From Candidatus Bathyarchaeota archaeon (GTDB lineage: Archaea; Thermoproteota; Bathyarchaeia; Bathyarchaeales; Bathycorpusculaceae): a stretch of 64,000 nucleotides of DNA. Where the stretch lies: contig CAWHVC010000005.1 in the NCBI GenBank assembly GCA_963832745.1, positions 582,590-646,589 on the forward strand. The letters run 5' to 3'. The notes under the pieces were generated by a model that was not told where the DNA came from, searched no databases, and worked only from the letters and a program-made list of their open reading frames with translations. Below are positions 16,864 through 47,983 of this stretch, piece by piece (positions within the stretch are counted from its first letter, which is position 1; every line of letters starts with the position of its first letter). A program made the position numbers and the translations under genes.

Positions 16864-18056
16864 TCAAAACCGCACCTTAAAACTGCAAAAGAAACGAGCA
16901 GCCAAACCAAAACAAAATTCAAAACTAAAAGCAAAGGGTCAAAACTCAAAGTTAACCCGTGAGCTAAAACTCTCAAAAAACCAGCACTGTTAAGCCAACC
17001 CAACAAAATATAGGTCAGCAAAGCACCAAAACTGCAAGCCAACAGAGAAACAGGCAGAAGCTTTAGCAGAACATCAAGTTTTAGAAGACGTTTTGAAACC
17101 CCCACGTACCTGAGTGTTTCAACTTCCTCTTTATGCTGACGAATCAAAGTTTGCGTAGCCGCAACTATAGTTAAGCTGCATAACAAAAACACCAAGGTTG
17201 ACAATATGGATAAGGCTTCGCGGGTTACGCCGTAACGATCAAGGTAACTTTTCATTAAGTTCTGAGTGCCACTGACGCTGAGTTGCCCAATATTGAATGT
17301 TATAGGCACCCAAGAAATAATGTTTTGATAGTTCATGTATTGGCTTGACGTAGAGTTTGAAGAGGCAGATTGAGTGGTTTGGGGCTGCGCAGATTCAGCT
17401 AACGCCTGATACACACCAGCAGCCGTTACAACGTCAGGATTAGTTTTAACCCGAATCAAAGTAACATGGTTATAATCAGCAAACCGTAACCATTGACCAA
17501 CATTAAGCAACACCAAAATTTCATCATCCATACTTGAGCCAGACTGGAAAACACCACCAACTTTAAGCTGCAAATATTTATCAGCCAAAGAAGAAAAAAC
17601 AAGAAATTCGTCACCAACCCGCAAGTCCAAACGGCCTGCAAGATTTTTTCCTATCAAAGCAGAATCGAAATCGGTTGGAGTTAAAGCTGCTCCATCAATT
17701 ATTTGTGCAGGATTTAATTGGAAAAACATTTCCGGCAAAACCCCGCGTACAAAAACTGACTGGTTGTTGACTATGCAGGGGGTTATGGTTTCGGGGCTGT
17801 TTACTAAAACGCCTTTAACTTGGCTAAGAGATTCTGACAGGTAAGCAGGGATAGAACCTGTAAAAGGCGTTCTACTTTGACTGCCATAAACTGCAACAAT
17901 ATCAGATTCTTCGCCCAAATAGGCATTGAAGCTTTTGTAAAAACCAAGAAAACTAAGAGCAGTCATCAAAAAAAGCGTTGAAACCAACGATAAAATTAAA
18001 ACTAAAACAATCAGGTGTCTAAGGCGTAGGTAACGAAAACTGAAAAGTTTGCTCAT
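16860..18056 (-). CDS. FtsX/MacB-like ABC permease
   Basis: TM, extracellular domain (VRGV...LIGKNLA.RL...VGD), ETLRYVG, C-terminal TMs; ATGA overlap at 18053-18056. Confidence 0.85.
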   Translation of the reverse strand: MSKLFSFRYLRLRHLIVLVLILSLVSTLFLMTALSFLGFYKSFNAYLGEESDIVAVYGSQSRTPFTGSIPAYLSESLSQVKGVLVNSPETITPCIVNNQSVFVRGVLPEMFFQLNPAQIIDGAALTPTDFDSALIGKNLAGRLDLRVGDEFLVFSSLADKYLQLKVGGVFQSGSSMDDEILVLLNVGQWLRFADYNHVTLIRVKTNPDVVTAAGVYQALAESAQPQTTQSASSNSTSSQYMNYQNIISWVPITFNIGQLSVSGTQNLMKSYLDRYGVTREALSILSTLVFLLCSLTIVAATQTLIRQHKEEVETLRYVGVSKRLLKLDVLLKLLPVSLLACSFGALLTYILLGWLNSAGFLRVLAHGLTLSFDPLLLVLNFVLVWLLVSFAVLRCGFE

Positions 18057-38387: not shown

Positions 38388-39206
38388 TTAGTCGTGTGAC
38401 CCACAGTTTTTCATTAGACCAGCAAGCTCTTCCATTTTCAGTGGAGTGGGCACCGTAAAGTAGTCATTGCATACTATTTTTTGTGCAAGATTGCGGTAGA
38501 CTTCTGCCTGCGTTGAGTTGGTGTCGTAGTCGATAACAGTTTTTCCTGTTAGCTCGGCACGTTGCACAATGCTGTCTTTGGGTATTGAACGGATTAGTTT
38601 ACTTTTTATGCGTCTTGCAAACTGTGAAACAAGAAACTCTTCATCGCCGCTAACACTTGAGTTGCAGATGATTCCACCTAAGCGAACAGTTCCTTGTTCA
38701 GCAAATTTTTTGATTACTTTGCAAAGGTTGTTTGCGGCATACAGGGATGTAAAGTCTCCCGAAACTTCAAGATAGATTTCCTGAGCACAGCTTTCACGTA
38801 TTGGCATGGTTAAATCGCCGCTGGATAGGTCTCCGGGCACATCAAAAAAGACAAAGTCCAAATCATCTTCGTATATGCCCATTTCGGACAGCGCATCTAT
38901 TGAGTAGGTTACTCCTCGCCCGGCAAAGCCAGCGCCCAATTCAGGTCCGCCCGACTCAACGCAAGCTACCCCTCCAAAACCAGTTGAGCAAATCATTTCT
39001 GGAGAGTATTGTTCGCCGTATGTGCGTAGGACTTCTTGTACGGTGGCTTGCTGTTTTCCATGAAGCAGTAAACGAGTGCAGTCAGCTTTAGGGTCGCAAC
39101 CCAGCAGCAGAACCTGTTTGCCTCTTTCAGCCAACGCTGCCACTGTGTTTTGTGTTGTCGTGGTTTTGCCTATGCCTGCTTTTCCGTAAATTGCTATTTG
39201 CCGCAT
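38388..39206 (-). CDS. NifH paralog lacking both [4Fe-4S] cysteine ligands
   Basis: Colinear with 44293..45111 (both 272 aa); GKAGIGKT and GCDPKAD kept; GVGCGGRG becomes GAGFAGRG and DVVCGGF becomes DLSSGDL. Confidence 0.9.
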   Translation of the reverse strand: MRQIAIYGKAGIGKTTTTQNTVAALAERGKQVLLLGCDPKADCTRLLLHGKQQATVQEVLRTYGEQYSPEMICSTGFGGVACVESGGPELGAGFAGRGVTYSIDALSEMGIYEDDLDFVFFDVPGDLSSGDLTMPIRESCAQEIYLEVSGDFTSLYAANNLCKVIKKFAEQGTVRLGGIICNSSVSGDEEFLVSQFARRIKSKLIRSIPKDSIVQRAELTGKTVIDYDTNSTQAEVYRNLAQKIVCNDYFTVPTPLKMEELAGLMKNCGSHD

Positions 39207-39330: not shown

Positions 39331-40653
39331 TTAACACTTGTACAATAATTCAAGCATTTTTCTAAACAATTTTATAAACAAAAAACAAAAAAAGGAACAG
39401 TTATGCGTTATTGAACAATCACAGGAAACCCATTGCCAGTGGTCAACGAAAAGTTTCAGTTCCTGCAACAAAGCTTTGAATTCTTCATCGCTAATCGACG
39501 TACTTCTCCCTGATGCATATATGTCTTTGATTTTGTTCAAAACTGCTGTCACGGTTTCTGTGTCGGGGTCTGTACCTGTGAATTCAAAGATTTTGTGTTT
39601 AATGATTGTTTTGCCAGATTGCTTTCCAACGCTCAAATGCCGCGAGTTTCCTACAAGTTCTGGCGGATACGGCTCATAAGTCCAAGGGTCACTCAAAACA
39701 GCGTAAGTATGGATACCGGATTCATGCATAAAACCGTACTTACCCACAATAGCCTTGTTTGATGGAATCTCAAACCCAACCGCTGTGCTAATGAAGTCTG
39801 CAACCTGTTTGAGTTTTTCAGTTTTGCCTTCAAACTTGCGTACGCCATAATGCAGATACAGGTTGAGAAGGATTTTTTCGGTTTCAGCGTTTCCAGCCCG
39901 CTCGCCTATGCCCAAAAAGGTTGTGTTGATGTAAAGCTTGTCCCATAATCCCGAGGCTGCTTGAACAGCAGCTAAACTATTGCCAATAGCGTTACCAAAA
40001 TCATCATGCATGTGGATACCTAACGCTTTGATGTTGGTTTCCTTTTTGAGCATCCATATCTTTCTTGGAATACCAAAAGGCAACGGTGCAGCAGTGTCTG
40101 GAAGCCCAACTCCTACGGTGTCACAAACACGGTAACATTCGGCGCCTGCATCCGCAACAGCATTAACAAACTTTTTCTCAAAAGCCCAGTCTGCCCTTGT
40201 GCCGTCTTCGCCGTGAACAAAAGTGCGTAAACCATGAGTTTTAGCAGCGTATTCTACCACGTCAACTACATTTGCAAGAAGTTCCTCAAAGGTCTTGTGT
40301 GGCCATTTAGCTTGCATGTGAAGAAAAGAAACAGGGTGAGAAATGCCGACCTCGTCAAAACCAAGGTCAATAGCGCTGTCAACGTCGGCTTTGATGGTTC
40401 GGCACCAAGCGCTGATGCGGCAGTCAAGTTTGAGGCGCATGATTTGCCTGACAGCTTCTTTGTCAGGTTCTTGGTAATGAAACAGTTCGAGCCGTTGAGC
40501 GCCGACGCTACATAGGAGTTGCGCGGTTTGGGCCGCATCTTTGGGTTTAAAGGCGACGCCTGCCATTTGGGCGCCGTCCCGCAAAGTGGTATCATCGATG
40601 ATTGGGTCAGTTTTTAGCGGGGGCATTTTGAAGTAGAAGTCTTCAAGCCTCAT
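39331..40653 (-). CDS. nifV: Homocitrate synthase-like (NifV/LeuA family)
   Basis: DTTLRDGAQ, HMHDDFG, GIGERAGN, HESGIH; position in the nif operon; C-terminal tail may be a frameshift artefact (alternative stop ~39408). Confidence 0.72.
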   Translation of the reverse strand: MRLEDFYFKMPPLKTDPIIDDTTLRDGAQMAGVAFKPKDAAQTAQLLCSVGAQRLELFHYQEPDKEAVRQIMRLKLDCRISAWCRTIKADVDSAIDLGFDEVGISHPVSFLHMQAKWPHKTFEELLANVVDVVEYAAKTHGLRTFVHGEDGTRADWAFEKKFVNAVADAGAECYRVCDTVGVGLPDTAAPLPFGIPRKIWMLKKETNIKALGIHMHDDFGNAIGNSLAAVQAASGLWDKLYINTTFLGIGERAGNAETEKILLNLYLHYGVRKFEGKTEKLKQVADFISTAVGFEIPSNKAIVGKYGFMHESGIHTYAVLSDPWTYEPYPPELVGNSRHLSVGKQSGKTIIKHKIFEFTGTDPDTETVTAVLNKIKDIYASGRSTSISDEEFKALLQELKLFVDHWQWVSCDCSITHNCSFFCFLFIKLFRKMLELLYKC

Positions 40654-40666
40654 CTCAAGTACATCC

Positions 40667-42004
40667 TTAGAATTCTTTGCGATCCATTATGGTGTTAACG
40701 ATTGTGTCTAGCAGTTGCAGTGTACCTCGGTAACCCATCATTGCACGTCTCTGGTAACCGAACCGGTCAGCTTGCGGGAAACCAACGCGAACCAGTGGGA
40801 TGCATTCATTTTTTGCGATGTATTTGCCTTTGTAGTCGCCGATTATCATGTCAACTTTGGATTCCTTGATTTTCTGGTGCAAATCAAGCAGGTCGCCGCC
40901 TACGATTATGTTTAGTTTTTCTGGTTCTGCATCGTACTCTTTTGCGATGGCTTCGATTTCAGGTGGGAACGTTTTATCGTCAAGGGTTGTCATTACATGG
41001 ACGGGTTGCATGCCAATTTCGTAAGCAAACCGTGTAAGGCCACTTACGATGTCCGGGTCGCCGAAAATTGCCACTTTAACACCGAAAACGTTCATGCTAC
41101 AGTCAGCGTAAGCGTCAACAAGCAGGTCACGTTCATCCATCAACGCTTCACTTGGTTTTTTGCCGGTTTGTCTTGTGACGTTTGATATGAATTCTTCCGT
41201 GCTTGCAATGCCAATTGGGGTGGGACCAAGGAACATGGGGATTCCAAAGCGTTCTTGCATAAAGTTAGCTGCCCCTTGACCTTCTCGTTTGCATATTGCA
41301 AAAGTGCCAAATGAGTTGGCAGAATCCGCGATTTCTTCGATTGTTGTGCCGCCTTTTGGAAATTCGGGTTTAGGCAATCGTAATGGCGCGTTTAGGGTTT
41401 GTGAAATGTCTGTTAGGTAGATTGCGTCTACTTCCATCAGTTCAAGCATATGCTTGATTTCCAGTACATCCCCGGGGTTAATCATGCCGGGAATAATGTT
41501 GATTTTGTTGGTGGGATGGGTCTTTTTCTCTGCAAGCTGGGTAACCATGGCTTTAATTGCGTTATCATAGCCGATTACGTGGTTGCCAACATAGCTGGGC
41601 GTGTTTATGGTCACAATTTTTGCTTTATTTGCAAGGTCCTTGTTCTCTGCACGGAAAGCTTTGGTTATACCGTGGATGTCATCACCTGTTGTTTCGCTTA
41701 GGCATGTTGTTATGACGGTTATTATTTCGGGATGCTTGCGTTCGATGATGTTTCCTAATGCTTGCTTTAAGTTGGATGCACCGCCGAAGATTGTGGCTTT
41801 TTCATGTAGTGAAGTGATTGCGACTTCTATGGGTTCACGAAAGTGCCGTGCCATAAGGTTCCGTGGATACGTGGAACAACCTTGCGAACCATGGACTAAG
41901 GGTACGCTACCATGGATACCAAGGGTTGCCCAGATTGCTCCAATTGGCTGGCACATTTTAGGGGCGTTAACTGAGACGCTTCTTTGGTGTGTGATTACAG
42001 TCAT
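40667..42004 (-). CDS. nifK: Nitrogenase beta subunit (group III-like, short N-terminus)
   Basis: All three P-cluster Cys (CQPIGA, HGSQGC, TTCLSET), TPSYVG and VGFP..DR. Confidence 0.9.
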   Translation of the reverse strand: MTVITHQRSVSVNAPKMCQPIGAIWATLGIHGSVPLVHGSQGCSTYPRNLMARHFREPIEVAITSLHEKATIFGGASNLKQALGNIIERKHPEIITVITTCLSETTGDDIHGITKAFRAENKDLANKAKIVTINTPSYVGNHVIGYDNAIKAMVTQLAEKKTHPTNKINIIPGMINPGDVLEIKHMLELMEVDAIYLTDISQTLNAPLRLPKPEFPKGGTTIEEIADSANSFGTFAICKREGQGAANFMQERFGIPMFLGPTPIGIASTEEFISNVTRQTGKKPSEALMDERDLLVDAYADCSMNVFGVKVAIFGDPDIVSGLTRFAYEIGMQPVHVMTTLDDKTFPPEIEAIAKEYDAEPEKLNIIVGGDLLDLHQKIKESKVDMIIGDYKGKYIAKNECIPLVRVGFPQADRFGYQRRAMMGYRGTLQLLDTIVNTIMDRKEF

Positions 42005-43381
42005 TTATTGTACCCCCGGTTGTTTGTTTATAAATTTCCAAGCTGGAGAATAAAGAGCCTTATACATGTCCTGAGCGAAACGTACGAAACCCTTGAACAT
42101 CATGTAGCCGCCTTTGCTGTCGTAATTGTGTCCGTTAATGAAGGGTATGCCAAACTTGTAAGAGAGGTATTTTTCTTTGGTGCCTGAAATGAACAAGTCG
42201 GGTTTGTATTGAACCATAGCTTCTTCCAATTCGACAGCGTTAGGGTTATCAATGACTAAGGTACCGTTTTTAACGCGGCTGATAATTTTCTCATAGTCAT
42301 CCTCATGGCCAAACGTGGTTGCAGAAACAACAATGTCCATGCCAAGTTCTTCCATTGGTTTTACCCAGTGCCAACTTCTTGGACCACCTTCATACATCAT
42401 AATTTTTTTGCCTTCGAACTTTTTAAGGTAGAAATCAATTTGTGGTTGAGTTTCAGCCAACTCTTTTGCGATGACTTCTTCAGCTTTTTCTTCTAAACCA
42501 AAGAACTTGGCAATTTTGCGCAAATCATCAGCAGTCTGTTGCATACCATAGAAGTCTACTTCAAGGTGTGGTGTGCCCCATTTGTCTTTCATCATTTCAG
42601 CAATGTACTTGGCGCTACGGGCGCATCGGATAATGTTTAGTTTGGCTTCGTGCATTTTGGCTATGTCATGAATCGACGCGTCACCAGTGAATGTGCAGAC
42701 TACTCGTAGACCCATTGCTTCAAGCACGGGCACGATTAGCCAGTCGTCGCCTTTGATGTTGTATTCACCGATTAGGTTTACATCATAGGGTGTTTTTTCT
42801 TCTAGGGCTTCGGTGCCGACGACTTGGTCAAAGAGTGTTTGGTTGCCCACATGGTGACCGATGCTTTGGCTGACTCCGTGGAAACCTGGACAGTTGAAGG
42901 CAACTACGGGTTTGCCGATTGTTTTGCTGGCACGTTTTGCCACGGCATTAATGTCATCACCGATTAAACCTGCAACACATGTAGCGTAAACAAACACTGC
43001 ATGTGCTTCAGGAAAAGCATTGTTTGATTCAATGATTGAGTCGTAAAGTTTCTTTTCTCCACCAAAGACAATGTTTGACTCTTTTAGGTCAGTTGAGAAC
43101 ATGTTAGCTGTGTGCAAGTCGGTTTTTGCAATATGTGGACGACTATCCCAAGTGTAGTAGGCGCAGCCGATGGGTCCATGCTGGAGCTGGATGGCGTCTT
43201 TGACTGGCCCACCGACGACACCTCTGCAACCTGCGAAGGCACAACCTCGTTCGGTCATGTCTCCTGGGATGGTGCTTATGTTGCAAGCCATACATTTTTC
43301 GGTGTCCTTATCGTCTTTTAGGTAAATGTGTTTTTTACGTTCTGGAACATTCTTATCGCATTCTGGTAATACAAACGGCAT
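42005..43381 (-). CDS. nifD: Nitrogenase alpha subunit (group III-like)
   Basis: P-cluster Cys (RGCAFAG, GPIGC, ATC); Val70, Arg96, SQSIGHH (Gln191/His195); cofactor ligands Cys275 (RCARS) and His442 (NGHNY). Confidence 0.92.
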   Translation of the reverse strand: MPFVLPECDKNVPERKKHIYLKDDKDTEKCMACNISTIPGDMTERGCAFAGCRGVVGGPVKDAIQLQHGPIGCAYYTWDSRPHIAKTDLHTANMFSTDLKESNIVFGGEKKLYDSIIESNNAFPEAHAVFVYATCVAGLIGDDINAVAKRASKTIGKPVVAFNCPGFHGVSQSIGHHVGNQTLFDQVVGTEALEEKTPYDVNLIGEYNIKGDDWLIVPVLEAMGLRVVCTFTGDASIHDIAKMHEAKLNIIRCARSAKYIAEMMKDKWGTPHLEVDFYGMQQTADDLRKIAKFFGLEEKAEEVIAKELAETQPQIDFYLKKFEGKKIMMYEGGPRSWHWVKPMEELGMDIVVSATTFGHEDDYEKIISRVKNGTLVIDNPNAVELEEAMVQYKPDLFISGTKEKYLSYKFGIPFINGHNYDSKGGYMMFKGFVRFAQDMYKALYSPAWKFINKQPGVQ

Positions 43382-44269
43382 TTATTTTCCTCCAACTTTT
43401 TTGGTGCAAGCAGCGTCTTTTTGAGCGGCATTATCTTTTCCAGGTATGCCTACGGCGTCGGCGCGGCATTGTATACAATTATGAAATTGAACCATGATTC
43501 CGCCACAAACATTTCTTACTAATTGGACGTCTTTTAGTGACGGCGCGGGTATGTCGGCAAATTTACCTTGTGGAATAAGCGGCATGACGTTCATGATGTA
43601 TGCGCCCCGTTCCTGCACGGCTTGGGCAACGTCAATTATGTGGTTTGAGTTTATGCCTGGAATAAACACAGTGTTAACTTTAACTGCCATGCCCAATTCT
43701 GCTGCTAAACTTAAGCCTTCAAGCTGGTTTTTGCTTAAGACTTCAAAACCTTCTTTGCCGTGCAATGTCTTGCCGTTATAGCGTACATAAGAATAGATTT
43801 GCTCACCTACTGCAGGGTCAACAGCGTTTATCGTAATGGTCAAAGCATTAACCCCCAAGTCTTTTATGGCACGGATTTTTTCAGGCAGCAATAAACCGTT
43901 TGTTGATAAGCATCGGGTTAAATGGGGAAATTCTTGCTGAACAAATCGCAGAGTTTCAAATGTTGCATCACTGGTTAATGGGTCACCTGGTCCTGAAATA
44001 CCTATAACACGCAGTTGTGGGTCACTTTTTGCTACGGCACGGACACGTTCTATGGCTTCTTTTGGCGTGATTAGTTTGCTTGTAACGCCTGGTCGGCTTT
44101 CGTTTGCGCAGTCAAACTTTCGTACGCAGTAGTTGCAGCCGATGTTGCAGTTGGGTACAACTGGAAGGTGTACTCGGGCAAACTTGTGGTGCGCATCAAC
44201 ACTGTAACAGGGATGCTCCTTTACAATTTGGGAGCACCGCTGTTGATACGCGGTTTTAGAACTAATCAT
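43382..44269 (-). CDS. nifB: Radical-SAM cofactor biosynthesis protein NifB (SAM domain only)
   Basis: HPC, CNIGCNYC, ESRPG, SGPGD, TITIN, CIQCRADA. Confidence 0.95.
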   Translation of the reverse strand: MISSKTAYQQRCSQIVKEHPCYSVDAHHKFARVHLPVVPNCNIGCNYCVRKFDCANESRPGVTSKLITPKEAIERVRAVAKSDPQLRVIGISGPGDPLTSDATFETLRFVQQEFPHLTRCLSTNGLLLPEKIRAIKDLGVNALTITINAVDPAVGEQIYSYVRYNGKTLHGKEGFEVLSKNQLEGLSLAAELGMAVKVNTVFIPGINSNHIIDVAQAVQERGAYIMNVMPLIPQGKFADIPAPSLKDVQLVRNVCGGIMVQFHNCIQCRADAVGIPGKDNAAQKDAACTKKVGGK

Positions 44270-44292: not shown

Positions 44293-45190
<898 letters not shown>

Positions 45191-45418: not shown

Positions 45419-45739
45419 TTACATGTTACTACTACTGCTTGAACTTGAGCTACTACTGCTACTCATGTATTCTTTGATTGTCGTTGCAGGCATAGTATGA
45501 GTATCAACCACGCCATCCATTGCACGAATTTTGTCACCTACAAAATGCAGTGCATTATCGTTGCTGTTTGCTTCAAACCAGATTGCAATGTCCCAGTCAC
45601 CGAAAACGTTATAGGAACCTGAAATGTTTACGCCGTTCATCGGGTTTTGCGACAGATTTGTGAATGCATTAAAGAAAGCGTTTGTTTTCAATGGGTTTAA
45701 CTTTATTAAAACTAGATATTTTTGCATGTTTTTTTGCAT
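45419..45739 (-). CDS. Stand-alone Lrp/AsnC ligand-binding (RAM-like) domain protein with poly-Ser tail
   Basis: YLVLIK...YNVFGDWDI......KIRAMDGVVDTHT; no HTH; 12 consecutive Ser. Confidence 0.7.
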   Translation of the reverse strand: MQKNMQKYLVLIKLNPLKTNAFFNAFTNLSQNPMNGVNISGSYNVFGDWDIAIWFEANSNDNALHFVGDKIRAMDGVVDTHTMPATTIKEYMSSSSSSSSSSSSNM

Positions 45740-45818
45740 TTAAAATTCACCGATTTTATAGATGCAAAAGGGTGCTTAAGCGTGTGTGACTGCTAAACAA
45801 CAGCAACAAACTTTAAGG

Positions 45819-46097
45819 TTATTGCAGAAAAGACAGCGCTGCTTTTATTTTGGCTTGGCATTTAACGCATTTTTCCATAAAATCCTCACGATGCAATGGG
45901 CCACACGAGTCACATGAAAAGCGTTGTTCTGAATCATTGATGAAGCAGCAAACTGGATATTTGGTTGATTCTTTAAAGGCACCCAAGATTATGGATAGTT
46001 GGGCTGCTGCGTTACTGGATGCATCCTCGTCAGGTTCAAGGCCCATGCTGGATAATTGGTCTATTAAGTGGTCTAACCGCCGTTTTATGCTTGTCAA
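45819..46097 (-). CDS. Small Cys-containing hypothetical protein
   Basis: TTG start; VCC, CDSC and CVKC motifs. Confidence 0.55.
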   Translation of the reverse strand: MTSIKRRLDHLIDQLSSMGLEPDEDASSNAAAQLSIILGAFKESTKYPVCCFINDSEQRFSCDSCGPLHREDFMEKCVKCQAKIKAALSFLQ

Positions 46098-46205
46098 ACC
46101 CTTTGCCCCACTCAAACAAGAGCAACAGCAAAGGCAAAATAAAAACTTAACCAACAAAAAAAGAAATTACTTCAATATCAAGCAAAAATTTTGAATTCAA
46201 CAATA

Positions 46206-46901
46206 TTAACAGCTTATGCCATAGTAATCGCTAAAATCCAGCAGAACACCGTTATGGAATTCAAACGTGACGGCTTTGTCTAAGTCGCGGGCTGTTGGAT
46301 TTATTGGCGATAGTTTAAGTGTTGTGTAGATGTCTTGTTCGGAGAATTGTTTGATGACTATTTGCAGTGTTGTGTCCCCGTTTGTTATGTTCATAGGTTG
46401 GATGTGGTTGACAAGTTCGAGGGTTTGCCGCATTTCTAAAAGGTATGAGGCGTTGCTTTGATAGTTTTGGTATCGTTCAAGAAAACTTTTTGTCCAATTC
46501 AAAATCTTGTCTGAGGGATAAGCTGGAGAAAACAGTGTGTTCGAACGGACGCTGAAGTAGGGTTCGTGAATGTAAGTGCTGTTTGATTTTGTGTATAAAA
46601 TGTCAACGTATGCCTCATCGTCTGGAGATTTCAAATCGTACTGCATCAAATAAAGCGGCAACCCATTACTACTTACAACATCCAATTGAGGCCAAAAATG
46701 TAAATCAACAACTTCATAATCAGTCAAGTTAAAACCTACAACGTCTCTTAGGAACGCCAAAGATTCATCTTGTAAAGAGGCAGGTGCTGAAGGATTAAAC
46801 AAAAACTGGGGTGTTCTCCAAGATGCTGCTATAAACAAAACCGCGAACAACACAGCACAGAACCCAATCAGGAGGAATCTTCTCTTCAGAATTAACACCA
46901 C
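46206..46901 (-). CDS. Membrane-anchored hypothetical protein
   Basis: N-terminal TM; FLRDVVGFNL block. Confidence 0.7.
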   Translation of the reverse strand: MVLILKRRFLLIGFCAVLFAVLFIAASWRTPQFLFNPSAPASLQDESLAFLRDVVGFNLTDYEVVDLHFWPQLDVVSSNGLPLYLMQYDLKSPDDEAYVDILYTKSNSTYIHEPYFSVRSNTLFSPAYPSDKILNWTKSFLERYQNYQSNASYLLEMRQTLELVNHIQPMNITNGDTTLQIVIKQFSEQDIYTTLKLSPINPTARDLDKAVTFEFHNGVLLDFSDYYGISC

Positions 46902-46974
46902 CCTTTAATATTGAAGCACACAGGTTAAAAGTTTAGTCATCATTAAGGGCGCCCAAGCGATAAAGGAAGCACCA

Positions 46975-47043
46975 ACCTATTTGGATTCCTAATAGAAATG
47001 GTGTGCAGAAACCTATAGGGGGTAGGTCAGTTAGGCGCTTTTT
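46975..47043 (+). repeat. Dispersed intergenic repeat, copy C
   Basis: CCTATTTGGATTCCTAATAGAAATGGTGTGCAGAAACCTATAGGGGGTAGGTCAGTTAGGCGCTTTTT. Confidence 0.88.
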
Positions 47044-47062
47044 CAAGTCATTAGTATATTGA

Positions 47063-47983
47063 TTAGTGATCTTTGCTTCTGACATACCTTGATGCTCGCA
47101 TAGCAGCTACTGCACCTTCACCTGCCGCCGTCACCACTTGCATACCCCCACAGGTACAATCGCCAGCAGCAAAAACGCCTTCAAGATTGGTTCTCTGCTG
47201 CCTATCAACCAACAAGCAACCATTCACGTCCATGCCCACGCCGGCATTTCGAACAATAGCTGTCAAAGGAACACTGCCTAAAGCAATAAAGACCCCCTTA
47301 ACTTCCCGTTCAACCATGCTATCTACGGTTTGGATTTTTACTGCTTTTACTGTTTGGTCGCCAGTTATAGTAGTTACTTTACCTTGAAGGGTTTCGATTT
47401 TGGGTTTATACTTCAACCTGCTAAGTATTGTGCCCTCAATGTTTAATTCACCGTCATAAATCAACAAGACATGCTCAGCGAATTCTGCCAAACTTAACGC
47501 TTCAACTGCTGCCTCGTTACTGTTGCCTACAACAGCCACTTTGGCGCGTTTAAAAAATGGTCCATCACACACTGCACAATAGCTGACACCTCGACCAAGA
47601 AAAAGGGCTTCACCAGGGACATTGAGTTTACGTTTTTGAGTTCCGGTTGCCAAAATAATAACGTAAGCGTCATAGGTTTGTTTTCGAGTAAAAACATGCT
47701 TAACTTCACCTGCTAGTTCTAAACCCGCGACTTCTTCGGATGTAACGATTTCTGCACCCAAACGTTCCGCCTGACGCCGCATTTTTTCTGCTAAATCGCT
47801 TCCTTTGATACCTTCGTCAAAACCAGGGAAATTTTCAATCATGGGGGCAGTCCAAGCTTTTCCGCCTGGTATTCCAGATTCTAGAACTAATGTTTTTAGT
47901 CCAAGCCAGGCTGTGTAGATGGCTGCGGTTAATCCTGCAGGTCCTGCTCCTATTATTAAAATGTCGTAAGGTTGAGTTTGCAT
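47063..47983 (-). CDS. trxB: Thioredoxin-disulfide reductase
   Basis: GAGPAGLTAA, IENFPG, GRGVSYCAVCDG, FAAGD. Confidence 0.9.
   Translation of the reverse strand: MQTQPYDILIIGAGPAGLTAAIYTAWLGLKTLVLESGIPGGKAWTAPMIENFPGFDEGIKGSDLAEKMRRQAERLGAEIVTSEEVAGLELAGEVKHVFTRKQTYDAYVIILATGTQKRKLNVPGEALFLGRGVSYCAVCDGPFFKRAKVAVVGNSNEAAVEALSLAEFAEHVLLIYDGELNIEGTILSRLKYKPKIETLQGKVTTITGDQTVKAVKIQTVDSMVEREVKGVFIALGSVPLTAIVRNAGVGMDVNGCLLVDRQQRTNLEGVFAAGDCTCGGMQVVTAAGEGAVAAMRASRYVRSKDH

Follow-up and report, generated by a model that had tools for sequence, protein, structure and literature searches.

The gene at positions 42005..43381 of a 64,000-nucleotide stretch of a Bathyarchaeota genome (the window) very probably encodes the alpha subunit (NifD) of an early-branching, NifEN-less Mo-type nitrogenase, located in a Bathy-6-like nifH-nifB-nifD-nifK-nifV operon. 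Judging from the comparisons described below, the metal of this enzyme is most likely Mo. What looks like a mixed active site is usual for early-branching Mo-type nitrogenases, and the present study adds, by the use of controls, that the mixed Mo/V/Fe signature characterises a whole supergroup and is uninformative about the metal.

The nif genes form a compact cluster in the order nifH-nifB-nifD-nifK-nifV, accompanied by a nifH paralogue and a putative promoter:

45149..45179, minus strand: putative nifH promoter, consisting of the palindrome TGTGAAcatTTCACA (45179-45165) and then the TATA-like element TTTTAAATA (45157-45149).
44293..45111, minus strand: nifH, Fe protein, 272 aa (TIGR01287, 430.8 bits; cut-off 394.35).
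43382..44269, minus strand: nifB, short radical-SAM NifB, 295 aa (TIGR01290, PF04055).
42005..43381, minus strand: nifD, nitrogenase alpha subunit, 458 aa (P0001; ORF and profiles).
40667..42004, minus strand: nifK, beta subunit, 445 aa, directly 3' of nifD (PF00148, 419 bits).
39331..40653, minus strand: nifV-like gene of the homocitrate/isopropylmalate synthase family, 440 aa (PF00682, PF22617).
38388..39206, minus strand: nifH2, NifH paralogue, 272 aa (TIGR01287, 350 bits; cut-off 394).

The NifD protein, translated from a single 458-aa ORF on the minus strand, begins with MPFVLPECDK; the plus-strand reading of the same interval is stop-ridden, leaving the minus strand as the coding one. 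NifH keeps both [4Fe-4S] cysteines and shows the GVGCGGRG and VVCGGFAMP motifs in the alignment. NifB scores 342.3 bits against TIGR01290 (cut-off 343.65), covering profile positions 6-283 of 441, and has no NifX-like C-terminal domain. The best PDB matches of NifK are 9p1x_B and 9spz_B; it retains the equivalents of beta-Cys70, Cys95 and Cys153, and carries Asn at beta-188 and Tyr at beta-98, the latter being the Nif type (Phe in Vnf and Anf).

The host genome, assembled in 5 contigs with 99.02% completeness, lacks the scaffold genes nifE and nifN of the canonical Mo gene set nifHDKENB; the absence of NifE and NifN follows from the fact that its PF00148 ORFs number two, nifD and nifK. A search for VnfG/AnfG gave no PF03139 matches in the host genome, while the positive control, M. 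acetivorans, was matched. A modA gene was detected (86.9 bits, cut-off 62.5), although it may serve other Mo/W enzymes. The nifHBDK order of the Chloroflexi type present in the window was also found in all four Chloroflexi loci with enough flanking sequence (L009-L012).

The nifV-like gene starts 13 bases 3' of nifK and occupies the same place in two more Bathy clusters (L003, L096), whereas the Chloroflexi loci examined have no nifV 3' of nifK. Its product scores 271 bits with the nifV model, under the cut-off of 462.9, and is the likely source of homocitrate. NifH2 is 65% identical to NifH in pairwise alignment and lacks both cluster-binding cysteines, with Phe at the position of Cys97 and Ser at that of Cys132; its relatives form a small clade of 73-83% identity. 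The putative promoter element is also conserved 5' of nifH in L003 and in L096, a relative with 79% NifD identity whose flanks differ outside it. The NrpR-type operator consensus, GGAA-N6-TTCC, was rejected as a candidate regulatory site: its one match in the window lies at 17720, far from the nif genes, and 1.08 matches are expected by chance.

For the analysis of individual residues, A. vinelandii numbers were set by motif anchoring on the Group I NifD of Dechloromonas (P0129), in which Cys62, Cys88 and Cys154 carry their A. vinelandii index and the index of both Cys275 and His442 is one lower, and the numbering was cross-checked against residue lists in published papers. The alignment confirmed all the residues named in the preliminary description, namely Ala65, Gly69, Arg96 and Asp445, C275-A-R-S278, G356-G-P-R-S-W-H-W363, N440-G-H442 and Glu355. 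Chance can be set aside, the residues being aligned positions in a protein that matches NifD structures with an E value of 5.5e-159. Glu355 was rightly regarded as unusual: it occurs in 8 of the 25 Bathy-clade NifD proteins and in none of 170 other early-branching ones, and no Vnf, Anf, Group I-III or NifE row of the alignment has it.

The P-cluster ligands Cys62, Cys88 and Cys154 and the cofactor ligands Cys275 and His442 are present in the window NifD and in each of the 8 further Bathy sequences of the alignment. The window protein carries all ten residues described as strictly conserved (V70, Q191, H195, C275, R277, S278, G356, F381, G424 and H442; review PMC10745740). As Q191, H195 and H442 are replaced in the NifE rows, it is not a maturase, and His442 together with other nitrogenase-only sites sets it apart from maturases and Nfl proteins alike. 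At positions 65, 69, 96 and 380, which tell Mo from V/Fe enzymes (McGlynn 2013), it has A, G, R and T, of which the first three are Nif-type and the last is not the Lys of V/Fe enzymes, and the Mo state is also found at positions 71, 91, 387, 426, 427, 428 and 445. The Nif-type relay Ala65/beta-Tyr98 is kept. The carbonate loop of Vnf, 355TGGPRL360 (Garcia 2020), corresponds to EGGPRS, in which T355 and L360 are absent and P358 is kept.

The retention of all catalytic and ligand residues in NifD and NifK, the intactness of all six ORFs of the cluster, nifH2 included, and the nitrogenase-only sites separating NifD from maturases and Nfl proteins speak against the reading that the cluster does not fix N2 in vivo, being either a relic or a nitrogenase-like enzyme for another substrate. 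A65, G69 and R96 are moreover retained by every one of the 25 Bathy-clade proteins, whose identities span 72-100%, which argues for purifying selection. This reading, which we consider improbable, draws on the rarity of NifD, found in 2 of 301 Bathyarchaeia genomes sampled and in none of 14 other genomes of the host's genus, so that the trait appears dispensable and was probably acquired; on the loss of cluster ligands in nifH2, itself a member of the cluster; and on Roseiflexus, for which diazotrophic growth is not demonstrated. Judged from its sequence, the Bathy nitrogenase would be expected to reduce N2 in vivo.

The motifs previously described as V/Fe-type are indeed present, but V/Fe specificity was not upheld for several of them: the N-terminus, GGPRxWHW and NGH are common to every early-branching lineage sampled, the Mo-proven ones included. 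P358, W361, W363, N440 and the N-terminal motif occur in all these lineages; the first three are Vnf-like, yet shared by the whole supergroup. For a quantitative comparison, 95 alignment columns discriminating 12 Vnf/Anf rows from 22 Group I-III rows were scored. The window NifD has the Mo state in 42 columns, the V/Fe state in 25 and neither in 28; the corresponding figures are 43, 24 and 28 for the M. infernus-type protein P0334 (977.7 bits against 9spz_A) and 37, 26 and 32 for P0105 of Roseiflexus castenholzii. Over these columns, therefore, the window NifD is no more V/Fe-like than Mo-proven enzymes.

Profile searches gave a similar picture. The window NifD scores 601.5 bits against TIGR01862 (cut-off 486) and 571.8 bits against TIGR01284 (cut-off 512.8); it passes the NCBI 'alternative nitrogenase alpha' (alt_nitrog_alph) subfamily model and fails all equivalog models, reaching 520.2 bits with the nifD equivalog TIGR01282 (cut-off 653.55), 479.8 with VNFD (cut-off 823.1) and 440.8 with ANFD (cut-off 873.8). 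Mo-proven early-branching types also fall below the TIGR01282 cut-off (P0334, 475.5 bits; P0105, 454.3 bits), and so this model covers Group I-III only. The Roseiflexus and M. infernus-type NifD proteins equal the window NifD in both mixed signature and HMM pattern. The earlier view that the metal could not be predicted confidently was therefore abandoned: with the same signature and HMM pattern in experimentally established Mo enzymes, Mo can be predicted fairly confidently. The Vnf/Anf-looking motifs are traits of the whole supergroup that gave rise to Vnf and Anf, not signs of V or Fe-only chemistry.

These results also bear on the proposal that the V/Fe-like residues reflect real chemistry and that the enzyme holds FeV-co, FeFe-co or a 'proto' cluster (unmatured or variant) in place of FeMo-co. 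The 95-column score, no higher in V/Fe character than that of Mo-proven enzymes, argues against it, as do the lack of VnfG/AnfG in the host genome, the absence of the Vnf/Anf states at positions 65, 69, 71, 91, 96, 380, 387, 425-428 and 445 and of the carbonate-loop residues T355 and L360, and the behaviour of the closest system with biochemical data, in which Mo but not V gives activity. In its favour are the VnfD-like P358, W361 and W363, the passing of the alt_nitrog_alph model, and two residues near the cofactor in which the window NifD departs from both Mo-proven relatives of the comparison: A276, as in Vnf/Anf (Q in P0334 and P0105), and M451, as in Vnf (A or H in the others). Furthermore, the lack of NifEN leaves the maturation route of the cofactor free, and a 'proto-Mo-cofactor' has been allowed for Chloroflexi-type enzymes (Garcia 2020). 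On balance such a cofactor is very improbable. According to Garcia 2020, the metal cannot be told from features of modelled pockets.

Phylogenetic analysis was performed on NifD and on concatenated NifD and NifK. The careful NifD tree was built without eight long-branch rows (P0123, P0128, P0131, P0132, P0134, P0137, P0138 and P0140), and the NifD+NifK tree comprised loci only, without Caldicellulosiruptor and Firmicutes. The Mb-Mc clade (Methanobacteria/Methanococcus) was outside the sampling of both trees, a scan of genome contigs having covered the best 80 of 598 stretches, and their Methanocaldococcus/Methanothermococcus rows correspond to the Methanococci within the F-Mc clade of Garcia 2020. 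P0140, considered as a stand-in for Mb-Mc, was dropped on being recognised as a degenerate VnfD-like protein that lacks both Cys275 and His195.

On these trees the window NifD is not a Group I-III NifD. The NifD tree places the Bathy clade inside a supergroup with Vnf and Anf (support 100/99) and the window NifD outside the Vnf+Anf clade (100/100). The preliminary description had put the protein near the root of the alternative nitrogenases, and this stands as far as the shared supergroup, the position outside Group I-III, the match to the alt_nitrog_alph model and an unrejected sister position are concerned: constraining the Bathy clade as sister to Vnf/Anf gave dlnL 4.0 and p-AU 0.37 for NifD, and dlnL 12.4 and p-AU 0.197 for NifD+NifK. 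A special closeness to the alternative enzymes was not borne out, since the best trees place the Bathy clade weakly beside Pyrohabitans and Chloroflexi types, with support of 74/42 for a grouping with both in the NifD tree and 72/96 for one with Chloroflexi in the NifD+NifK tree. Nor does the protein nest within a Mo Group III clade sharing all its residues; it belongs with lineages that have most of them in common and of which some are by now characterised Mo enzymes, A276 and M451 being absent from the two Mo-proven relatives compared. In substance, though not to the letter, this is the outcome that the preliminary description had named as its refutation.

The unrejected constraint, together with a quick NifD tree that gave no resolution among the Bathy, Chloroflexi and F-Mc types and Vnf/Anf, leaves some room for the Bathy clade being the closest living branch to the Vnf/Anf root, whatever its metal. 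We regard this as unlikely, because the best trees join Vnf/Anf to others, namely a branch of M. infernus-type, Firmicutes and Caldicellulosiruptor proteins in the NifD tree (88/87) and the single M. infernus-type row, L013, in the NifD+NifK tree (98/97), and the same trees join Bathy to the Pyrohabitans/Chloroflexi types. The nifHBDK order likewise ties Bathy to Chloroflexi, and in published HDK trees it is the Mb-Mc clade (Methanobacteria/Methanococci), outside the present sampling, that adjoins Vnf/Anf (Garcia 2020).

For the Mo-type enzyme the following working may be proposed. NifB would produce an [8Fe-9S-C] precursor. Because the host genome is without NifE and NifN, NifDK itself would be the site at which the precursor becomes FeMo-co; NifH, molybdate and homocitrate would take part, the homocitrate probably supplied by the linked NifV-like enzyme. 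Electrons would pass from NifH to the P-cluster (alpha-Cys62/88/154, beta-Cys70/95/153) and then through the Ala65/beta-Tyr98 relay to the cofactor, for which Cys275 and His442 are the predicted ligands. Such self-maturation by the Bathy NifDK, with no helpers other than NifH and NifB, is suggested by analogy with Roseiflexus proteins, the one case in which it has been demonstrated, in vitro (PMC11573651).

The Bathy clade has private changes, R274, G449 and M451 and one extra residue after 445, that adjoin the Mo ligand or lie on the cofactor-insertion path. Gly449 replaces an otherwise invariant Pro449. Positions 274 and 451 of A. vinelandii NifD both influence cofactor insertion. A far-reaching and improbable reading is that the Bathy-6 nitrogenase represents a distinct archaeal cofactor assembly, with a self-maturing NifDK and a redox-dead NifH-like helper and, in its boldest form, a sister position to Vnf/Anf and a non-canonical cofactor or heterometal preference. 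Features pointing in that direction are R274, M451, the replacement of Pro449 and the extra residue in the loop after His442, as well as the clade's own NifV-like gene and, in the window's sublineage, a NifH paralogue unable to hold a [4Fe-4S] cluster.

NifEN-less nitrogenases are relevant to cofactor assembly in the earliest nitrogenases, and their gene sets are candidate minimal sets for engineering. Given the abundance of Bathyarchaeia in sediment, nitrogen input there would extend beyond the methanogens if the enzyme works. These points have already been published for the Bathy-6 lineage and its relatives; the present analysis adds the residues specific to the clade (R274, G449 and M451), the accessory genes nifV-like and nifH2, and the conserved palindrome of the putative promoter.

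The Bathy-6 nifHBDK lineage was described in 2024 (ISME Commun, PMC11697101), in the accessible text of which it is presented as a NifEN-less Mo-nitrogenase that clusters with Chloroflexi and whose active-site residues are conserved. Its locus shares with the window the organism class, the nifHBDK order and the lack of nifEN, and comes from an assembly other than the window's 5-contig one; the same text mentions neither a fifth, nifV-like gene nor a nifH2 without cysteines nor R274/G449/M451. The NifD protein P0002, which NCBI assigns to Bathyarchaeia and which is encoded on a 3.04-Mb contig, is 93% identical to the window NifD.

Among characterised enzymes, VnfD and AnfD of A. vinelandii (PDB 5N6Y, 8BOQ) score 451 and 413 bits against the window NifD, and A. 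vinelandii NifD 372. They resemble it in length, N-terminus, C-A-R-S, P358/W361/W363 and N-G-H, but Vnf/Anf have C, L/H, I, D/N and K in place of A65, G69, V71, Y91 and R96, and K, F/M, R, V/P, G and H in place of T380, Y387, K426, E427, K428 and D445. Vnf/Anf systems also encode a G subunit, whereas the window host has no G gene. The best solved match is NifD of M. infernus (9spz_A, 532.8 bits over the full length), whose NifDK (PDB 9SPZ/9SQ3) is a FeMo-co enzyme with traits of all three isoforms and Mo identified by anomalous diffraction (Nat Commun 2026, PMC13554218). Both proteins have the MPFVL..CDK N-terminus, GGPRxWHW, T380 and the Ala65/beta-Tyr98 relay; M. infernus-type rows differ in having M231, V355, Q276, S441 and E445, where the window NifD has I231, E355, A276, G441 and D445. 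M. infernus is a methanogen, and in the trees its type is nearer to Vnf/Anf than the Bathy clade is.

Roseiflexus, of the Chloroflexi, has the same nifHBDK operon without nifEN, a NifD 55% identical to the window protein, and a weakly supported sister relation to Bathy. It is a thermophilic bacterium, whereas the window host is an archaeon, and its NifD differs in H274, Q276, P449, A451 and a one-residue deletion after 445. The two proteins agree in HMM pattern, Mo-type diagnostic residues, GGPRxWHW and NGH. In vitro, the nifHBDK proteins of Roseiflexus made FeMo-co without NifEN, and its NifDK depends on Mo together with homocitrate; W inhibits it, and V does not activate it (PNAS 2024, PMC11573651).

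The interval 42005-43381 contains a single minus-strand open reading frame encoding the 458-aa NifD P0001, with the N-terminus MPFVLPECDK; a plus-strand reading was rejected for its many stops. The gene is a member of a compact cluster, in which the gene names are consistent with family scans:

44293-45111, minus strand: nifH, 272 aa
43382-44269, minus strand: nifB, 295 aa
42005-43381, minus strand: nifD, 458 aa, with nifB immediately before it
40667-42004, minus strand: nifK, 445 aa, with nifD immediately before it
39331-40653, minus strand: nifV-like gene, 440 aa, 13 bases past nifK
38388-39206, minus strand: nifH2, 272 aa, 124 bases past the nifV-like gene

P0001 scored above the cut-offs of the NCBIfam subfamily models TIGR01862 (601.5 bits vs 486) and TIGR01284 'alt_nitrog_alph' (571.8 vs 512.8), and below every equivalog cut-off (nifD, 520 vs 653.55; VNFD, 480 vs 823.1; ANFD, 441 vs 873.8; nifE, 455 vs 505.1). 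The same pattern, both subfamily models passed and all equivalogs failed, was found in 7 of 7 scanned representatives of the early-branching groups, sampled as Schekmanbacteria/Methanoperedens, a Methanosarcinales group, Caldicellulosiruptor, Pyrohabitans types, Chloroflexi-type (Clfx) nitrogenases, M. infernus types and Firmicutes types. Among solved structures, M. infernus NifD gives the best match (9spz_A, 532.8 bits), followed by VnfD (451), AnfD (413) and A. vinelandii NifD (372). Molybdenum was located in the M. infernus enzyme by anomalous diffraction, and passages of the same report note N-terminal and other Vnf/Anf traits in it and regard sequence alone as insufficient for assignment (PMC13554218).

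The NifK of the window has all three cysteine ligands. In place of beta-Ser188, which ligates the oxidised P-cluster, it has Asn; two other Bathyarchaeia NifK carry Asn and Thr, Clfx have Thr (3) or Asn (1), and Schekmanbacteria/Methanoperedens have Thr in 4/4, while Ser is retained in Vnf/Anf, in Group I and in 8 of 9 Group II/III rows. Residue beta-98 is Tyr, as in Nif-type proteins, where it is described as the partner of Ala65 in the M. infernus electron relay (PMC13554218).

Residue numbers follow A. vinelandii and were anchored on motifs of P0129, a Group I NifD from Dechloromonas, in which Cys62, Cys88 and Cys154 have an equal index and Cys275 and His442 are one lower; they were cross-checked against published residue lists, including those in parts of PMC7216921, PMC3578447, PMC10745740 and PMC11573651. 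The preliminary description had reported a mixture of Mo-type and V/Fe-type active-site signatures in this NifD, and the alignment confirms this observation, with A65, G69, V70, R96, C275-A-R-S278, E355-G-G-P-R-S-W-H-W363, N440-G-H442 and D445 all seen in P0001. Glu355 is indeed unusual: it was seen in 8 of 25 NifD of the Bathyarchaeia (Bathy) clade, and none of the 170 other early-branching NifD that are 400 aa or longer have it. Position 355 varies inside the Bathy clade (E, Q, T, V), with Val in P0006 and, as in the carbonate loop of V-nitrogenase, Thr in the 77% identical P0008. The V-specific loop is given as 355TGGPRL360 (PMC7216921), whereas its counterpart in P0001 is EGGPRS.

The positions at which Vnf/Anf differ from all Mo groups are 65 (A in P0001, C in Vnf/Anf), 69 (G, L/H), 71 (V, I), 91 (Y, D/N), 96 (R, K), 387 (Y, F/M), 426 (K, R), 427 (E, V/P), 428 (K, G) and 445 (D, H); the diagnostic sites listed by McGlynn et al. 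2013 are 65, 69, 96 and 380 (PMC3578447). A VnfD-like protein of the representative library, P0140 (465 aa), no longer has Cys275, His195 and further residues that are otherwise invariant, and is probably a decayed or repurposed alternative-nitrogenase subunit of metagenomic origin.

The V/Fe-like motifs do not serve as a metal signal: P358, W361, W363 and N440, together with G/S441 and T380, occur in all early-branching groups sampled (91-row alignment), and column counts match those of Mo-dependent types. Discriminating columns were not hand-picked, and were defined by the absence of any residue common to the 12 Vnf/Anf and the 22 Group I-III rows (n=95), with a strict subset (n=28) having at most two residue types per class.

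Residues of Mo type / V-Fe type / neither in the discriminating columns
P0001: all 95 columns, 42 / 25 / 28; strict 28, 13 / 4 / 11
P0334 (M. infernus type): all 95 columns, 43 / 24 / 28; strict 28, 12 / 5 / 11
P0105 (R. castenholzii): all 95 columns, 37 / 26 / 32; strict 28, 12 / 4 / 12

P0334 matches 9spz_A over its full length (977.7 bits), and the Roseiflexus enzyme is reported to require Mo and homocitrate, to be inhibited by W and to gain no activation from V (PMC11573651). Judged by these similar counts, P0001 is no more V/Fe-like than two types with experimental Mo dependence.

The careful NifD tree (83 rows, 475 columns, NifE outgroup, eight long-branch rows excluded) united Group I and Group II/III in one clade (branch support 100/99) and placed all early-branching lineages with Vnf+Anf in a supergroup (100/99). 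Within it, the Vnf+Anf clade (100/100, stem 1.19) adjoins Caldicellulosiruptor + (M. infernus types + Firmicutes types) at 88/87, and the Bathy clade (100/100) stands weakly (74/42) beside Pyrohabitans types and Clfx. Concatenated NifD+NifK (48 rows from loci, 920 columns, NifE+NifN outgroup) recovered Bathy+Clfx at 72/96, and the sole M. infernus-type row grouped with Vnf/Anf (98/97). Both trees were built without the Methanobacteria/Methanococcus 'Mb-Mc' clade; in the work of Garcia et al. this clade stands beside Vnf/Anf (PMC7216921). The suggestion of a lineage near the root of the alternative nitrogenases with no confidently predictable metal was half correct: this lineage is indeed a member of the supergroup from which they came, but its closeness to Vnf/Anf and the uncertainty of the metal were overstated. 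Placement with Vnf/Anf is possible yet not favoured, since a Bathy+Vnf+Anf constraint costs 4.0 lnL (p-AU 0.37) for NifD and 12.4 lnL (p-AU 0.197) for NifD+NifK. Gene order supports the Bathy-Clfx link. In a genome scan for nif loci (best 80 of 598 stretches), nifH-nifB-nifD-nifK was found in 4/4 Clfx loci among the matches listed, which also include nifB-nifD-nifK in one Pyrohabitans-like and one Schekmanbacteria locus, and nifH, a gap and then nifD-nifK in Methanoperedens, Methanosarcinales and Archaeoglobaceae loci.

Several traits are particular to the Bathy clade when its 25 proteins are compared with 170 other early-branching NifD: R274 (25/25 vs 1/170, with H in 159), G449 (25/25 vs 0/170, P in 170/170), M451 (25/25 vs 0/170, A in 161), S360 (22/25 vs 2/170) and A276 (21/25 vs 26/170). 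M451 is shared with 10/10 Vnf rows and A276 with Vnf/Anf, whereas residue 446, retained in the Bathy clade, aligns with a one-residue gap in Vnf/Anf and all other early-branching groups. Because changes of His274, His362 and His451 in A. vinelandii reduce cofactor accumulation, as stated in a review (PMC10745740), a position of R274 and M451 on the cofactor-insertion path may be taken as a lead, not as a result.

The source genome (3.02 Mb, 5 contigs) is 99.02% complete, and its PF00148 matches are nifD and nifK only; it therefore has no NifE/NifN. A PF03139 search of it for AnfG/VnfG gave no matches, while the positive control, M. acetivorans, was detected. It contains modA (86.9 bits vs cut-off 62.5), two small proteins with a NifX-like domain outside the nif cluster, one weak P-II match elsewhere and none within the cluster, and five HMGL-family synthases, the nif-linked gene among them. 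P0001 is already present in NCBI and ENA; its nearest proteins form 24 clusters at 72-93% identity named Bathyarchaeia in NCBI, after which identity falls to at most 60%. Among the 301 Bathyarchaeia genomes sampled, this one included, two were found to carry NifD (1/48 others of the family, 0/14 others of the genus), a sparse distribution that fits the acquisition by a Bathy-6 ancestor suggested in PMC11697101.

The nifV-like gene, of the homocitrate/isopropylmalate-synthase family, comes next after nifK in 3/3 Bathy clusters read: the window, L003 (10699-11979; NifD 93% identical) and L096 (5681-6997; NifD 79% identical, host of the same family). It scored below the nifV equivalog cut-off (271 vs 462.9), and no such gene was found after nifK in the Clfx loci listed. 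The nifH2 product is 65% identical to NifH across all 272 residues and is predicted to be unable to bridge a [4Fe-4S] cluster, because Cys97 and Cys132 are replaced by Phe and Ser. Its P-loop (GKAGIGK) and switch II (DVPGD) changes are common to five related clusters (73-83% identity); as these still have Cys97 (5/5) and Cys132 (4/5), the ligand loss would be recent and stepwise. nifH2, absent from the nif cluster of L096, could be a duplicate in decay or else a helper that resembles NifH but is redox-dead.

Upstream of nifH (45149-45179, minus strand), a palindrome, TGTGAAcatTTCACA, directly precedes a TATA-like TTTTAAATA, about 40 bases from the nifH start. The element also lies upstream of nifH in L003 and the more distant L096, and the palindrome is a candidate operator of some nitrogen regulator; no NrpR-type GGAA-N6-TTCC site was found upstream of nifH. 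Three genes lie further upstream, at 45419-47983:

first, minus strand: 106-aa AsnC/GYD-like protein with a C-terminal serine run
second, minus strand: 112-aa Cys-rich protein, no family match
third, minus strand: thioredoxin-reductase-like flavoprotein

The same three precede nifH in L003, and 0/3 were detected in L096.

NifH, NifB, NifD and NifK form a complete set with intact ligands, with no scaffold genes and with a linked homocitrate/isopropylmalate-family synthase. By analogy with Roseiflexus as described in PMC11573651, NifDK would be the site at which NifB-co matures to FeMo-co, with the participation of NifH, molybdate and homocitrate, and N2 would then be reduced by the holoenzyme. 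Both the lineage and its interpretation as a Mo-type enzyme that lacks NifEN and lies near Clfx are already published: the 2024 paper PMC11697101 describes nifHBDK in Bathy-6 genomes with nifE/nifN not found (a fifth gene is not mentioned in its passage on the cluster), identifies the product as a Mo-nitrogenase whose active-site residues are conserved, and places its NifD and NifK with the 'Clfx' clade. That such enzymes look mixed has been under discussion since 2013, in passages of PMC3578447, PMC7216921, PMC11697101 and PMC13554218.
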